Shown in pieces: positions 18,313 through 24,000 of a stretch of DNA of 24,000 nucleotides. The notes beneath the pieces are model-generated. The model had not been told where the DNA came from. It worked only from the letters and a program-made list of their open reading frames with translations, and ran no database searches. A program made the translations under genes and the position numbers. Positions within the stretch are counted from its first letter, which is position 1; the number at the start of each line of letters is the position of its first letter. Origin of the DNA: Alkalibacterium putridalgicola. Its GTDB lineage: Bacteria > Bacillota > Bacilli > Lactobacillales > Carnobacteriaceae_A. The DNA lies in assembly GCF_900109825.1 (NCBI RefSeq), contig NZ_FOBL01000009.1, positions 60,843-84,842 on the forward strand. The letters run 5' to 3'.

Positions 18313-18349
18313 GGTATAAATATATACAATGAGATTGGGAGGAAATATA

Positions 18350-21300
18350 ATGGCAAATAGAGTTTTAGGATTGGATATTGGTGTGTCGAGCGTCGGCTGG
18401 GGAATTATCGATAAAGATACGAATGAGGTTATCGATGCAGGCGTTCGGTTGTTCGAAGAAGCGACACGCAATGCGAATGAAGAAAGACGTAGTTTTAGAG
18501 GAGCTCGTCGCTTAAAAAGACGTCGTAAACATCGCCTTGAACGTGCAGAAGACTTTTTGCAATCAAACGGTTTTCCTGTAGACAGTATCGGTTCTATTGA
18601 CCCCTATCGTGCTCGCTATGTTGGTTTAAAAGAGGAACTGTCAAAAAAAGAGCTGGCTGCTGCTCTTTATCATTTGATCAAACGACGTGGGACAACCATT
18701 GATACACCCGCAGAAGATGATAAAACTTCCGGCAATGAATTATCTACTAAAGAACAACTGAAACGTAATGCGAAAAAGTTGGAAGATAAACATGTCGTAG
18801 AAATTCAGTATGAAAAATTGGTGAACAATGAGGTCGTTCGTGACCATACGAATCGTTTCAAGACAAGTGACTATATCAATGAAGCAAAAGCCTTGCTTGA
18901 AACTCAAAGTAAATACCATGCTGAAATTGATGCATCTTTTATCGAAGGGATTATCGAACTCATTAACAACCGCAGACAATATTATGATGGTCCAGGATCT
19001 GAAAAATCTCCTACCCCTTATGGTCAGTGGTACTATGATGAAGAAGGCATCTTACAGTATGAAACGATGATCAATAAAATGCGCGGAAAAGGTACTTATT
19101 TTACAGATGAATTGCGGATACCTAAAAAAGCCTATACGGCAGAACTCTTTAATGTCTTAAACGACTTAAATAACCTCCACTTTCCTCGGGATGAGACCCT
19201 AGATAGTTTAACCACTGAAGAAAAAGAAACGCTTATAAAAACCCATATAGATAAAGGAAGTAAAATAACACTGAAAAAAATCGCTAAACTTGTGGGTATC
19301 TCTGATGAACTGGATATCAAAGGCGCCCGATTGAACTTAAAGACAAATAAACCGATATTTTCAGAGTTTACTGGCCTGAAAAAACTAAAAAAAGATTTGG
19401 AAGGTATCGATGTTCCAGAGGGATTCTTTGAAAATAGAGAAGTTTTGGATAAAATCGCTGAAATACTGACGGCTGAAAAAAGCATCGCTCGCCGTGAAGA
19501 ACAGCTGGGTCAGTTATTCGAACAAGCATATAGTAGTCCCTTGAGCGATGTAGTTGCAGGCCTAGTCAATGACACATCGTTCAAGGAATACCACGCACTG
19601 TCTAAAAAAGCTATGGATCTTATCTTGCCTGAACTGTGGGAGACCAATAAAAATCAGATGCAGCTCTTTACAGAACATGGACTTGGGAAAAGTCGACTGG
19701 AACAGCTACAGAAAGAATCAAAAATCCAGTTTGATGATGAAGCTATCTTAAGTACAGTCGCTCGTCGCGCCCACCGGGAAGCCATCAAAGTAACAAACGC
19801 AGTCAGAGAAAAACATGGGGAACTTTCTCATGTCGTTGTCGAAATGGCACGCGAAAAGAACAGTGACGAAGCAAAGAAATCCTATAACGATTATCAGAAA
19901 AAAATTGGTGCGTTTGAAAAGAAAATGGCCAAACTGCTTGACGTCAAAGAATTAAAAGACTTGAAACTGAACGGAAAACAGATGCTGGCTTTGAAACTGA
20001 TGGATAGCCAGGATTATAAATGTATCTATACAGGTAAGCAAATTTTACCTCATGATATTGTAAACCAAGAGTATCAGTTTGAAATCGATCACATCATCCC
20101 TCTTTCCTACTCTTTTGATGACAGCCAGCAAAATAAAGTCTTATGCTATCGTCAAGAGAACCAGGATAAAGGTCAACTGACCCCTTTCCAGTATTTTCAA
20201 AGCGGCAAGGCGAAGCGGACATTTAATGAGTTTAAAGCCGAATGTACCAATTTGTTCAACTCTAAAAAGATATCAAAACGCAAGTTAAATTATCTGCTCG
20301 AACAGCGTGACGTGCAGCACGATCCAGAAATCCAAAAGAACTTCATCAACCGCAACCTTGTTGATACGCGTTATGCCATGCGTAGTTTGTCATCAAACTT
20401 AAGAACATTCTACATGAATAACGACATTGACACGAAAGTCTTATCTATCAGAGGAAGTTTTACCTCTGCACTCAGACGTCGTGCTCGCCTCCATAAAGAT
20501 AGAGATGAAAGCCATGCCCATCATGCTATCGATGCACTGATCGTATCAGCTATCGGTACTACACCGATACTGAAACAGTTTAAAGCAGTCGACTTTAACC
20601 GTGAAGGTATTGCGGTCAATACAGAAACAGGTGAGATCATCAGTGAAGAAGAAATCTTTGCCTCCCCTACCTTGAAGTTCATTCATTGGTTGAGGAATAT
20701 GGAAAGCGAGATCAAGTATTCTCATAAAGTCGACCGAAAACCCAACCGAACCATGACAAACCAAACTCTCTATTCTACTCGAGAAAAAGATGGTGACAAG
20801 TATGTTGTTGGAAAAGTAAAAAATATCTATGAACTGGATAAAAAAGGATTCGACTCACTTAAGAAAAAAATTGACAAAGATCCAGATAGTTTCCTGATGG
20901 CCCAGCATGATCCCAAGACATGGGAACTCGTTTTAAAAGTCATGGATGAACATAGTCACGCGGACAATCCTTTCCAAGATTTTAAAAAGCAGCATGGTCA
21001 TATAAAAAAAGACGGAAAGGTTCCAGTTAAAGGACTAAAATATCTCGATAATAAAATAGGCATCCATGTCGATATCTCTCATAAATTTCCAGAATCCAAA
21101 CGTGATGTTGTTCTCCTTAGTCGTAAAAGCATCCGTATCGATGTGTATCAGAACGATGAAGGGAAATATAAGTATTTGGGCGTCCCTTATAACTGGTTTA
21201 CAAAAGAAGGCGATCATTACGTTCTAGATAAAGAAAAATATTATGGTAAAGAAGGATTGGCAGCCCCTTACAAACAAATAGATGATTCCTATACATTCCA

Positions 21301-21592
21301 GTATAGTTTTTATAAAAATGATCGGATTTCGTATGACAAGTATGAGAAAATGGAAAATCCAGAAACCGGAGAAAAAGAAAAAGTAATGGTACATCATGAT
21401 AAGATCTTTAGAGGAGACACAAATCCAAGACAAAACCAAATTGAGATTGATGACATAGCCTTCAAGTTTAATGGAAGACAATTCATCACCCTTGGTAAAC
21501 TAATAAATTTAGAAAAGTATAACATCGATATACTAGGAAATGAATATCTTATTGAAAAAGAAGAACTTCAGGATAAAATTCCGGCAATTTAA
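18350..21592 (+). CDS. cas9: Cas9 endonuclease, compact type II-A (SaCas9/St1Cas9-like), 1080 aa
   Basis: ATG at 18350 is preceded by GGGAGGAAATATA; the track's 18329 start lacks an RBS.
- RuvC-I: MANRVLGLDIGVSSVGWGII, with the Asp codon at 18374-18376.
- Arg-rich bridge helix: RRSFRGARRLKRRRKHRLER.
- RuvC-II: VVVEMAREKN.
- HNH: YQFEIDHIIPLSYSFDDSQQNKVLCYRQENQDKGQLTPFQY, with the His codon at 20090-20092.
- RuvC-III: HHAIDALIV.
Long stretches are colinear with SaCas9 as I recall it (GNELSTKEQ, NRFKTSDY, FINRNLVDTRYA, YSHKVDRKPNR, DILGN). Confidence 0.97.
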   Translation: MANRVLGLDIGVSSVGWGIIDKDTNEVIDAGVRLFEEATRNANEERRSFRGARRLKRRRKHRLERAEDFLQSNGFPVDSIGSIDPYRARYVGLKEELSKKELAAALYHLIKRRGTTIDTPAEDDKTSGNELSTKEQLKRNAKKLEDKHVVEIQYEKLVNNEVVRDHTNRFKTSDYINEAKALLETQSKYHAEIDASFIEGIIELINNRRQYYDGPGSEKSPTPYGQWYYDEEGILQYETMINKMRGKGTYFTDELRIPKKAYTAELFNVLNDLNNLHFPRDETLDSLTTEEKETLIKTHIDKGSKITLKKIAKLVGISDELDIKGARLNLKTNKPIFSEFTGLKKLKKDLEGIDVPEGFFENREVLDKIAEILTAEKSIARREEQLGQLFEQAYSSPLSDVVAGLVNDTSFKEYHALSKKAMDLILPELWETNKNQMQLFTEHGLGKSRLEQLQKESKIQFDDEAILSTVARRAHREAIKVTNAVREKHGELSHVVVEMAREKNSDEAKKSYNDYQKKIGAFEKKMAKLLDVKELKDLKLNGKQMLALKLMDSQDYKCIYTGKQILPHDIVNQEYQFEIDHIIPLSYSFDDSQQNKVLCYRQENQDKGQLTPFQYFQSGKAKRTFNEFKAECTNLFNSKKISKRKLNYLLEQRDVQHDPEIQKNFINRNLVDTRYAMRSLSSNLRTFYMNNDIDTKVLSIRGSFTSALRRRARLHKDRDESHAHHAIDALIVSAIGTTPILKQFKAVDFNREGIAVNTETGEIISEEEIFASPTLKFIHWLRNMESEIKYSHKVDRKPNRTMTNQTLYSTREKDGDKYVVGKVKNIYELDKKGFDSLKKKIDKDPDSFLMAQHDPKTWELVLKVMDEHSHADNPFQDFKKQHGHIKKDGKVPVKGLKYLDNKIGIHVDISHKFPESKRDVVLLSRKSIRIDVYQNDEGKYKYLGVPYNWFTKEGDHYVLDKEKYYGKEGLAAPYKQIDDSYTFQYSFYKNDRISYDKYEKMENPETGEKEKVMVHHDKIFRGDTNPRQNQIEIDDIAFKFNGRQFITLGKLINLEKYNIDILGNEYLIEKEELQDKIPAI

Positions 21593-21601
21593 AATAAAGG
21601 G

Positions 21602-21630
21602 TTTACATGTATATCTTGGCTTGGTATAAT
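21602..21630 (+). promoter_or_regulatory. Sigma-A promoter of the tracrRNA
   Basis: TTTACA (21602-21607), 17 nt spacer, TATAAT (21625-21630), with a TGg extended -10 (21622-21624). It begins 10 nt after the cas9 stop. Confidence 0.8.
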
Positions 21631-21636
21631 ATAGTT

Positions 21637-21738
21637 GTCCTCGACGGAGGACTCCGTTATACCAAAGGTTGAGAGAACCTACCAAAAAAAGGCTTTATGC
21701 CGAGATCACAGATCAGCCCCTTCATTGGGGCTTTTTTG
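21637..21738 (+). ncRNA. tracrRNA: tracrRNA (~100 nt primary transcript)
   Basis: Anti-repeat 21653-21687 pairs with the CRISPR repeat at 23928-23963 as 16 bp, a U-U mismatch, 7 bp, a 3-nt/1-nt bulge, then 8 bp. This gives 31 bp in total. A nexus-like hairpin GGC-UUUAU-GCC follows (21691-21701), then GAUC-ACA-GAUC. The terminator is AGCCCC-UUCAUU-GGGGCU plus U6 (21715-21737). The 5' end is predicted from the promoter only. Confidence 0.88.
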
Positions 21739-21769
21739 GTATCCAAATCCATGAAATGAGGTGTTCCAA

Positions 21770-22672
21770 ATGAGCTGGCGCGTCGTGTATATCGAAAAGT
21801 CTGATCGGCTGAAATTGTATCTGGATAATTTAAAAGTTGTCAGAGAAGAATCCGAAGTCCTCATCCCCTTATCCGATATACATACCATCATCGTTGATAA
21901 TCAGCAAACCGTTGTCACTGCAAGACTTATTAATAAACTTTCCAAATATCATATCCTGCTCGTTTTTTGTGATGAAAAACATCTTCCAAACACCTACGTC
22001 TTGTCTCCCCACAGCCATCATCAGTCATCCAAGATGCTGAAAAAGCAAATAGGTTGGTCCCCTGCTGTCAAAGAAATCATGTGGAAACAAATCATACAAA
22101 TAAAGATTTATAATCAGGCCTCCGTACTTCACCATTTAAAGCGGAGTGAACCTGTGATTCATCAGCTGTATGATCTTGCGGAAACGGTTCAGCAAGCTGA
22201 CCAGTCTAACCGTGAAGGTCATGCGGCTAAACTGTACTTTAAGGAACTCTTTGGTTCCTCCTTCATACGTGAACGCAGCAGTCTAGACGGCATCAACTCG
22301 GGACTGAATTACGGCTATATCGTCATGCGCTCAACTGTTGCGCGTAGTTTGATAGCTTCAGGGCTTCATCCTGGCCTTGGCATCGGTCACGACAATCAGT
22401 ATAATGCCTTTAATTTAGCTGATGATTTGATCGAACCGTTCAGACCAATTGTTGACCTATGGGTAGCTGTTTTGATGAGTGAAAAGGATTATCTTGACAT
22501 AAAAACCAAACAAAAACTCGTGTATTTGATCAGCAACAATAAAATTATGATTGGCAATCAGAAGCAAACGATTTTAAACGCAATATCTCTTCTCATTCAA
22601 AGCTTTATAAAAAGCATGGATGAAGAAAATCCCGATTTACTGGTGTATCCAGCTAATGGGATCGCCATATAG
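21770..22672 (+). CDS. cas1: Cas1 integrase (type II)
   Basis: ATG at 21770 is preceded by GAGGTG. The sequence MSWRVVYIEKSDRLKLYLDNL..., SNREGHAAKLYF, LNYGYIVMRS, FNLADDLIEPFRP follows the type II-A Cas1 pattern. Length is 300 aa. Confidence 0.95.
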   Translation: MSWRVVYIEKSDRLKLYLDNLKVVREESEVLIPLSDIHTIIVDNQQTVVTARLINKLSKYHILLVFCDEKHLPNTYVLSPHSHHQSSKMLKKQIGWSPAVKEIMWKQIIQIKIYNQASVLHHLKRSEPVIHQLYDLAETVQQADQSNREGHAAKLYFKELFGSSFIRERSSLDGINSGLNYGYIVMRSTVARSLIASGLHPGLGIGHDNQYNAFNLADDLIEPFRPIVDLWVAVLMSEKDYLDIKTKQKLVYLISNNKIMIGNQKQTILNAISLLIQSFIKSMDEENPDLLVYPANGIAI

Positions 22673-22985
22673 ATTTATGCGTCTCATGCTATTTTTTGAT
22701 TTGCCAATGAATACACGAAGCGAAAGACGAACGTATGCGAGATTTAGAAAGTATTTGATAAAAAATGGCTTTACCATGGTTCAATTTTCAGTTTATTCAA
22801 AGATCTTTCCTAACCGCAGTTCTTTAGATACGTATATGATGACATTAAGACAGAATCTGCCAAAACATGGTTCGATACGGGCAATGGCTGTTACTGAGAA
22901 GCAGTATAATAAAATGTACCTACTCGTAGGCGACCAGACATTGACTGAACAGACGCTGACAGATAATACGATGGTGATCTTATGA
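22656..22985 (+). CDS. cas2: Cas2
   Basis: MGSPYRFMRLMLFFDLPMNTRSERRTYARFRKYLIKNGFTMVQFSVYSK aligns with type II-A Cas2 N-termini (SpCas2 begins MSYRYMRMILMFDMP, as I recall). The start is uncertain: 22656 (overlaps cas1 by 17 nt) or ATG 22677. The track's 22620 is unlikely. Confidence 0.9.
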   Translation: MGSPYRFMRLMLFFDLPMNTRSERRTYARFRKYLIKNGFTMVQFSVYSKIFPNRSSLDTYMMTLRQNLPKHGSIRAMAVTEKQYNKMYLLVGDQTLTEQTLTDNTMVIL

Positions 22986-23917
22986 AAGAGTGGCGAATTA
23001 ACGATCCAAAAGGTACCACATTATTAATGAGTCAGATAACTCTTCTAAAAGGTGCTATTTTTGAATGGCAGGAAGTTATAGAACGGATTAGACTAACGTT
23101 TGAATTAAAAAAATATGATCTTTTTGAAAGTGAAGAAAAAATATATGTCGATGATTATTATTTAAGTATCTTGTCAAATTCTGATGACTATTATTCTTCA
23201 AATTTAAAGGACTCTAAAGACTCCTTAATGGCCTTGTTTATAGCTTACTTAGAACTGTCCCCTTTCTACAAAAATCTTGTTGAAAGCTGGGAAGAATTAC
23301 AGGAAGAAGTCGAACTTTTGAGCCAAGAACTCGGTTATTCTGCCGAAGTTCGATTAGATGATTATAAAAAGAATATTATCGAGGATCATTTAAAATGGAA
23401 AAGTAGCAAGGGAAATGCTTTGGAGGAAATGCTGCAGCAGATTAAGTTGACGAAAAAGTCTAAACCGGATAAAAGACATATTTTTATCCTAATATCTCCT
23501 GAAAAAATCTTAAACGATAAAGAGTTGGTAAAACTGAATGATCAACTACAGCAATCACCAGGTTATTTTATTGTTGTAAGTGGTTTTTCGTTTTCAGGCT
23601 CTCAGAATATTTTATACAATGATCAGATAATTAATCAGGAATCTGTAACAAGCTATAAAGACACAATAAGCACCCTATTACCTTTTGTATTCAGTGAAAA
23701 CAAATTTGAGAACTCTCTAAAGTGGTATATTAACTCTGTGGATAAAAGTAATGGAAACATCATAAAATTATCTCTATCGTCTGTGGATAACTTGGAAGAG
23801 TTAATTTATGTTTTTATAATGATATACGTAACTCAACTCCCGTTTACTGTTGACTACACGGGCATTCCTGAAGGTTACAAAAAGTACATTGAATCAGTAA
23901 TTGAATCTGAGGTATAA
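22982..23917 (+). CDS. csn2: Csn2-like protein, long form (311 aa), assigned mainly by position
   Basis: It is the fourth gene of a cas9-cas1-cas2 operon and is directly followed by the array. Its start overlaps the cas2 stop (ATGA). The central block KRHIFILISPEKILNDKELVKLNDQLQQSPGYFIVVS resembles the Csn2 core (SpCsn2 [37 protein letters not shown], from memory). Overall similarity is weak. Confidence 0.7.
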   Translation: MKEWRINDPKGTTLLMSQITLLKGAIFEWQEVIERIRLTFELKKYDLFESEEKIYVDDYYLSILSNSDDYYSSNLKDSKDSLMALFIAYLELSPFYKNLVESWEELQEEVELLSQELGYSAEVRLDDYKKNIIEDHLKWKSSKGNALEEMLQQIKLTKKSKPDKRHIFILISPEKILNDKELVKLNDQLQQSPGYFIVVSGFSFSGSQNILYNDQIINQESVTSYKDTISTLLPFVFSENKFENSLKWYINSVDKSNGNIIKLSLSSVDNLEELIYVFIMIYVTQLPFTVDYTGIPEGYKKYIESVIESEV

Positions 23918-23918
23918 T
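23889..23918 (+). promoter_or_regulatory. Candidate pre-crRNA promoter embedded in the 3' end of csn2
   Basis: TTGAAT (23889-23894), 18 nt spacer, TATAAT (23913-23918). The -10 overlaps the csn2 TAA stop (23915-23917). The predicted start of transcription is ~3 nt before the first repeat. Confidence 0.5.
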
Positions 23919-23927
23919 GAAATTGGC

Positions 23928-24000
23928 ATTTTGGTACTCTCTCATCCTTTGGTATAACGGAACTGTATCCGATAATGGTAGTACGCTTAATTATTTTGGT
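23928..24000 (+). CRISPR. Start of a type II-A CRISPR array (repeat 1, spacer 1, first 8 nt of repeat 2), truncated by the window end
   Basis: Repeat 1 is ATTTTGGTACTCTCTCATCCTTTGGTATAACGGAAC (23928-23963, 36 nt). The spacer is tgtatccgataatggtagtacgcttaatt (23964-23992, 29 nt). ATTTTGGT recurs at 23993-24000, giving a period of 65. The repeat is complementary to the tracrRNA anti-repeat and shares the GTACTCT core with Sa/St1-type repeats. The repeat/spacer boundary is uncertain by 1 nt. Confidence 0.85.

Follow-up and report, generated by a model that had tools for sequence, protein, structure and literature searches.

The 24-kb stretch of the Alkalibacterium putridalgicola genome analysed here (contig NZ_FOBL01000009.1; hereafter the window) closes with a compact CRISPR-Cas locus of type II-A. 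The gene order is cas9, trans-activating CRISPR RNA (tracrRNA), cas1, cas2, csn2 and array, and our analysis centres on the junction between csn2 and the array, where the predicted array promoter lies within the gene. The open reading frame (ORF) of 1087 residues matched HNH_4 (E 3e-21), RuvC_III, Cas9_RuvC, the Cas9 WED domain and the PI domain, which identifies it as Cas9. Consistent with subtype II-A, cas1, cas2 and csn2 follow downstream of cas9, with csn2 recognised through PADLOC profiles and gene context. The same subtype is indicated by a tracrRNA whose anti-repeat is complementary to the array repeat, and by an array of seven identical 36-nt repeats with spacers of 29-30 nt, directly 3' of csn2 and on the same strand.

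The csn2 ORF gave full-length matches to the PADLOC Csn2 profile PDLC02128 (E 1e-119) and to profile PDLC01600 (CAS-II-A; E 9e-81), and no match in Pfam or NCBIfam. Given that PF16813 is not matched, the protein belongs to a different subfamily from the long Csn2 of Streptococcus thermophilus CRISPR1. NCBI and UniRef list this subfamily as 'hypothetical protein', and the PADLOC profiles alone give it a name. An Rfam scan of positions 21400-24000 returned no match at E 0.1 or better.

The coding sequence of csn2 ends in GAG GTA TAA (stop codon 23915-23917), and only the 10 nt of TGAAATTGGC (23918-23927) separate it from repeat 1 (23928-23963). The first-pass annotation, which had placed the stop codon 10 nt before the first repeat, was thus correct on this point. 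It had further proposed a promoter of the form TTGAAT, 18 nt, TATAAT within the end of csn2, with the -10 element over the stop codon. A consensus scan recovered this very site, starting at 23889 as described. With 10 of the 12 hexamer positions matching the consensus, the site has the hexamers and spacing of a sigma-70-type promoter (coordinates in Table 1). Taken alone, this is weak evidence, since promoter-like sites are abundant in AT-rich DNA (15 in 2.5 kb here, compared with 9.0 +/- 2.6 in shuffled sequence). It is the conservation of the site in relatives that raises it above chance. Another promoter-like site, at 23792-23820 (TTGGAA-17-TATAAT), was considered and discarded, as its TATAAT occurs only in the window and in 95%-identical relatives and is not kept elsewhere.

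Conservation was assessed in 19 non-redundant orthologous loci with pairwise Csn2 identities of 25-96% (median 33%). These came from related genomes, from named contigs (six Alkalibacterium species, two Carnobacterium), from Lacticigenium-like genomes and from metagenome or Sequence Read Archive (SRA) assemblies. A word-indexed protein search contributed eight clusters, four of which were made into loci, and a Csn2-alignment scan of metagenome contigs confirmed no relative. In every one of the 19 loci csn2 ends in (G/T)TA TAA and is followed by T, so that TATAAT spans the stop codon. Likewise, TTG is present at the fixed 18-nt spacing upstream of TATAAT in 19/19 loci, and repeat 1 begins about 9 nt after TATAAT in all of them. 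The gap between csn2 and repeat 1 is 10 nt long, except for one locus with 9 nt, and ends in TG(G/A)(C/T).

The wobble positions are particularly informative. All 19 loci have G at -14, even though the codon it closes specifies any of E, G, K, R and T and only 15% of third bases in these csn2 genes are G. The third base of the Ile/Phe codon in the -35 region is T throughout, and ATT accounts for a fraction of 0.54 of Ile codons. Across the alignment, an invariant third base occurs in just 13 of 298 ungapped codon columns, four of which are Met or Trp. Three of the other nine belong to the promoter: the T in the Ile/Phe codon that contributes to the TTG, the -14 G, and the A in the last codon (Val/Leu); five more fall in two DnaA boxes described below. 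Strictly invariant runs of 5 nt or longer number only four in the 982 alignment columns, and TATAAT is one of them. The hexamers are thus conserved beyond coding constraint, both at wobble positions and at sites where the residue changes, which indicates that constraint at the end of csn2 acts on nucleotides rather than on the protein. This comparison of csn2 3' ends had been suggested by the first-pass annotation, and the retention of TATAAT, TTG, the G at -14 and the gap of about 10 nt in 19 loci supports, at the level of sequence comparison, its proposal that leader and promoter function is shared with the C-terminal codons of csn2.

Table 1 Sequence features of the type II-A locus, in order of position within the window
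Feature	Position	Strand	Details
cas9	18329-21592		1087 aa; HNH, RuvC, WED and PI domains
tracrRNA gene	21602-21740	+	in the cas9-cas1 gap
tracrRNA promoter	21602-21630	+	TTTACA-17-TGGTATAAT
tracrRNA anti-repeat	21653-21676	+	24 nt, 96% complementary to repeat positions 11-34
tracrRNA terminator	21715-21740	+	
cas1	21761-22672		profile match, E 6e-30
cas2	22620-22985		profile match, E 6e-17
csn2	22982-23917	+	311 aa; ORF; last ~10 codons hold the predicted array promoter
DnaA-box 9-mer, box 1	23737-23745	+	TGTGGATAA; 191 nt upstream of repeat 1; perfect in 17/19 orthologues
DnaA-box 9-mer, box 2	23782-23790	+	TGTGGATAA; 146 nt upstream of repeat 1; perfect in 19/19 orthologues
Predicted -35 hexamer	23889-23894	+	TTGAAT; spelled by Ile-Glu-Ser codons
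G at -14	23911	+	partial extended -10; third base of the penultimate codon
Predicted -10 hexamer	23913-23918	+	TATAAT; last two bases of the final Val codon, TAA and first intergenic base
csn2-repeat gap	23918-23927	+	10 nt, tgaaattggc; family consensus TGAAAATGGC
CRISPR repeat 1	23928-23963	+	36 nt, ATTTTGGTACTCTCTCATCCTTTGGTATAACGGAAC; equals the array consensus
Spacer 1	23964-23992	+	29 nt
Repeat 2, start	23993-24000	+	continues past the end of the window

The same junction was also seen in loci that are small or in decay. In three metagenome or SRA loci (L098, L099 and L100) csn2 is followed by a single repeat and no spacer, and the GTATAA-T-N9-repeat junction is kept. It is likewise kept in all of the decayed relatives (L019:2464-2510, L037, L021/L042). 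Variants among decayed loci include one that is missing the first 6 nt of repeat 1, one with an aberrant first repeat whose genome also carries a second, broken csn2, and genome G011, in which a fragmented csn2 accompanies a two-repeat array.

To place the junction in a wider context, we compared it with that of a sister Csn2 family found in a different order of Bacilli (best PADLOC model PDLC01600; loci L046, L047, L048 and L108). Both families have the same repeat type, GTTT(C/T)GGTACTCTC... in the sister family, and TATAAT precedes repeat 1 by 9-11 nt in the sister loci, which matches its repeat-relative position in the Alkalibacterium family. In contrast, the sister csn2 stops 36 nt before repeat 1, so its -10 element is non-coding, and this element is of the extended TGn type (TGnTATAAT); the leader ends in GAG. 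Together, these likenesses and differences indicate that the conserved feature is the promoter-to-repeat geometry, and that in Alkalibacterium and Carnobacterium csn2 runs into it.

We consider it likely, and the best reading of the sequence evidence, that a sigma-70-type promoter for precursor CRISPR RNA (pre-crRNA) lies inside the 3' end of csn2. Several points weigh against this. The 18-nt spacer is one above the optimum, and the -35 hexamer matches at only 4/6 positions (TTGAAT vs TTGACA). Pairs of promoter-like hexamers abound in the AT-rich DNA here (15 against the 9 expected), and both the promoter and the transcription start are predictions. Conservation beside the repeat could partly reflect recognition by the integrase and not by RNA polymerase. 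The relatives are non-independent samples, yet synonymous sites should be saturated at 25-40% protein identity. Finally, the promoter and terminator scan found no terminator at the csn2-array junction, so that read-through alone could supply pre-crRNA.

The last point leads to an alternative in which the array has no dedicated promoter and is transcribed solely by read-through from the cas1-cas2-csn2 mRNA, with GTATAAT-N9 being kept for recognition of a leader of about 15-16 bp by Cas1-Cas2-Csn2. Besides the missing terminator, no stable hairpin or attenuator was predicted when the junction was folded as RNA (23880-24000; z +2.1), so that the stretch from csn2 to repeat 1 holds neither. Integration is also known to depend on conserved leader ends abutting repeat 1 (PMC4330368; PMC5382924). 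However, the conserved bases are the exact -10 consensus, and an invariant TTG 18 nt upstream and the G at -14 go with them, both beyond the reach of the 10-bp adaptation determinant of S. thermophilus. In addition, the sister family carries an extended -10 at equal distance from the repeat despite its different leader end (GAG vs GGC). We therefore regard transcription by read-through alone as unlikely. Read-through from the csn2/cas mRNA may add to transcription of the array from the predicted promoter.

A leader promoter would also be unnecessary if each repeat carried its own, as in the type II-C arrays of Neisseria and Campylobacter. The 3' part of the repeat, TTTGGTATAAC, does look like an extended -10 element, and TGGTATAAC within the repeat resembles both TGnTATAAT and the tracrRNA promoter TGGTATAAT. 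Yet the critical final T of the -10 element is missing from all family repeats seen: the repeat variants read TATAAC, TATAAA, TATTAC, TAAGAA, TATAAG and TATTAA, whereas the TATAAT of the leader is perfect in 19/19 loci. Moreover, the -10-like bases of the repeat pair with the tracrRNA anti-repeat, which explains their conservation. Promoters within the repeats are thus a very improbable source of the array transcript, and a promoter in the csn2 tail remains our preferred reading.

Transcription of the array from the + strand is indicated by the tracrRNA gene, which has a promoter and terminator of its own on that strand and whose product pairs with + strand transcripts. Repeat 1 is a perfect consensus copy here and in nearly all loci. 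At the opposite end, two relatives with contiguous arrays (G009 and G004) have a last, csn2-distal repeat whose 3' end is degenerate, and the csn2-distal flank runs directly into unrelated sequence. The first-pass annotation had named a scenario at odds with its own view, in which repeat 1 is a degenerate terminal repeat and the array is transcribed from the far end. We found no observation in favour of such an arrangement, with the trailer next to csn2 and the true leader and promoter at the far end; the strand of the tracrRNA with its promoter, anti-repeat and terminator, the perfect repeat 1, and the distal degeneracy and unrelated distal flank all contradict it at the level of sequence, making it the least probable of the alternatives, and hardly credible. 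This polarity counts in favour of the predicted promoter in the csn2 tail.

The array of the window's genome (G000) is split in the assembly. Four repeats, including repeat 1, are on the contig of csn2 (C68), which ends inside spacer 4 (L004:1735-1750). The last three repeats and the trailer are at the end of contig C54 (C54:88007-88151; L001:1668-1812), behind the end of a multi-copy element that has at least eight near-identical copies at contig ends. One of the relatives with a degenerate last repeat has the same trailer flank as the C54 block, from which we infer that this block is the trailer end of the same array. An insertion sequence in a spacer probably splits the array. Compared with its closest relatives, this genome has matching repeats and a matching trailer flank, and zero spacers in common.

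A separate observation concerns a word that recurs across the locus. The tracrRNA promoter CTTGGTATAAT (21621-21630) closely resembles the 3' half of the repeat, TTTGGTATAAC (positions 22-31), and the -10 region of the csn2 tail, GGTATAAT; the word GGTATAA is common to all three.

How would such a junction work? In the mechanism that we propose, RNA polymerase would use the -35 element in the Ile-Glu-Ser codons and the -10 element formed by the Val codon, the stop codon and one intergenic base. Given that start sites usually lie 6-8 nt downstream of a -10 element, the predicted start is G 23925 or 23926, the conserved purines at a distance of 7-8 nt. This would leave 2-3 nt of pre-crRNA ahead of repeat 1, and hence almost no transcribed leader. 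In type II systems each CRISPR RNA (crRNA) matures with the repeat downstream of its spacer, through pairing with tracrRNA and cleavage by RNase III. Since the crRNA keeps that downstream repeat, the near-absence of a transcribed leader should cost nothing.

The 10-nt gap (consensus TGAAAATGGC), as a conserved short motif adjoining repeat 1, may double as the leader-anchoring sequence that directs Cas1-Cas2(-Csn2) to insert new spacers at repeat 1. No other sequence remains available as an anchor for Cas1-Cas2. The role of the gap in polarised integration is proposed by analogy with S. thermophilus CRISPR1, in which adaptation requires the 10 bp adjoining the repeat (PMC4330368). Ten bp are plausibly enough for an anchor, because adaptation persists in S. 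thermophilus when the transcribed region of the leader is cut down to those 10 bp (PMC4330368). The whole leader would then amount to about 40 bp, three quarters of which are coding.

An overlap between csn2 and an array promoter has a precedent. In S. thermophilus DGCC7710 the csn2 stop codon overlaps the CRISPR1 leader promoter, whose start site has been mapped (Wei et al. 2015, PMC4330368). That locus (type II-A, St1Cas9) has the same layout of cas9, tracrRNA, cas1, cas2, long csn2 and array, and its repeats are related (GTTTTTGTACTCTC... against ATTTTGGTACTCTC...). However, in S. thermophilus the overlap of the stop codon is limited to the upstream edge of the promoter, which is followed by 32 bp of transcribed leader, whereas in the Alkalibacterium locus codons contain both predicted hexamers, the -10 element encloses the stop codon, the gap is 10 nt and the predicted transcribed leader 2-3 nt. 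The two also differ in the leader end, (A/T)TG(G/A)(C/T) in the Alkalibacterium family and ATTTGAG in S. thermophilus, and in the first base of the repeat, which is A in the former and G in the latter.

A sizeable non-coding leader was assumed by the first-pass annotation to be the norm in II-A loci. The assumption is correct for loci of the S. pyogenes type (short Csn2, PF09711) and wrong for those of the S. thermophilus CRISPR1 type (PF16813). The former are of the same subtype and likewise have a leader between csn2 and repeat 1 with an anchor beside the repeat; in contrast to the Alkalibacterium locus, this leader is non-coding, 63-152 nt long and ends in CTACGAG (27 sampled Lactobacillales loci), with two more loci at about 805 nt. 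In PF16813 loci, the gap is 14-70 nt, being 30 nt or less in 7 of 17, and in Streptococcus-like loci it is about 60-70 nt, compared with 10 nt in Alkalibacterium. Seven PF16813 loci (L087-L090, L093, L094 and L096) have the csn2 stop codon 14-27 nt from repeat 1, a distance so short that their array promoters, if any, must lie inside csn2. No obvious conserved -10 element was seen in these short-gap loci.

Leader ends of type II-A loci have been sorted into three groups, ATTTGAG, CTRCGAG and CG, each followed by GTTT, on the basis of 167 loci (Van Orden et al. 2017, PMC5382924). As in those groups, a short, strictly conserved motif adjoins repeat 1 in the Alkalibacterium family, and co-varies with the Cas1/Csn2 lineage. 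However, the family junction ...AATGGC|ATTTTGG fits none of the three, and its repeat does not start with GTTT, unlike all of the 167 loci. An overlap with csn2 is not mentioned in that study, from which the words 'overlap' and 'stop codon' are absent (PMC5382924).

The second conserved feature of csn2 lies further upstream. The 9-mer TGTGGATAA is the reverse complement of the DnaA-box consensus TTATCCACA, and the gene contains two perfect matches in the same orientation, 45 nt apart. Perfect boxes are rare in the 2.6-Mb genome: there are only 41, four of them at dnaA/oriC and two in csn2. Synonymous sites included, the two boxes are the most conserved nucleotides of csn2, and box 2 is the longest strictly invariant nucleotide run in the whole alignment of 19 loci. 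The Val codon in the boxes is always GTG, which accounts for only 23% of Val codons in these genes with the box codons counted. The codon before it always ends in T though its residue varies, and the codon after it is AAx (K or N).

In the sister family, csn2 has one perfect TGTGGATAA and, about 37-47 nt downstream (47 nt in 3/4 loci), a second DnaA-like box that differs from its Alkalibacterium counterpart in being inverted and in having one mismatch. The second box falls in different reading frames. Given this inversion and change of frame, a site in double-stranded DNA is favoured over a peptide motif. Among the sampled PF09711 and PF16813 loci, 46 had sequence that could be examined, and none of these has a perfect box within 400 nt of the csn2 stop codon; the S. 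pyogenes-type loci differ from the Alkalibacterium locus in this respect too. We also considered that the boxes might be diverged repeat fragments, as TGG-ATAAC resembles TGGTATAAC of the repeat, and rejected this because the boxes do not covary with the repeat variants of relatives.

It is conceivable, though we advance it only tentatively, that the leader reaches about 190 bp into csn2 and includes both DnaA boxes, with DnaA acting there as a host factor. If DnaA binds, it could tune pre-crRNA transcription from the promoter about 100 bp downstream according to replication status. Alternatively, it could bend the DNA and so mark the leader end for the integrase, a DNA-bending role that integration host factor plays at the leaders of types I-E and I-F. 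The literature searched contained no report linking DnaA boxes to CRISPR leaders. If functional, the boxes would mark the first case of host-factor sites connected with the leader of a type II system.

The usual description of a CRISPR leader is a non-coding, AT-rich stretch of 100-500 bp. An overlap of csn2 with the array promoter is already known from S. thermophilus, and the Alkalibacterium case is a more extreme, family-wide form of it. New here are the predicted degree of overlap, with both hexamers coding, the stop codon within the -10 element and a transcribed leader of about 3 nt; its strict invariance over a whole Csn2 subfamily; and a junction, ..ATGGC|ATTTTGG, that lies outside the three published leader-end groups and precedes a repeat that does not start with GTTT. 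This junction offers a fourth leader-end motif for the study of leader recognition by Cas1. If the predicted promoter is used, about 40 bp, of which only 10 are non-coding, can make up a working type II-A leader, and promoter hexamers would dictate the final residues of Csn2. Predictors of leader or array orientation that expect an intergenic AT-rich leader will fail at such loci, and in engineering this small Cas9 system, deletion of csn2 or addition of a C-terminal tag would remove the predicted array promoter.

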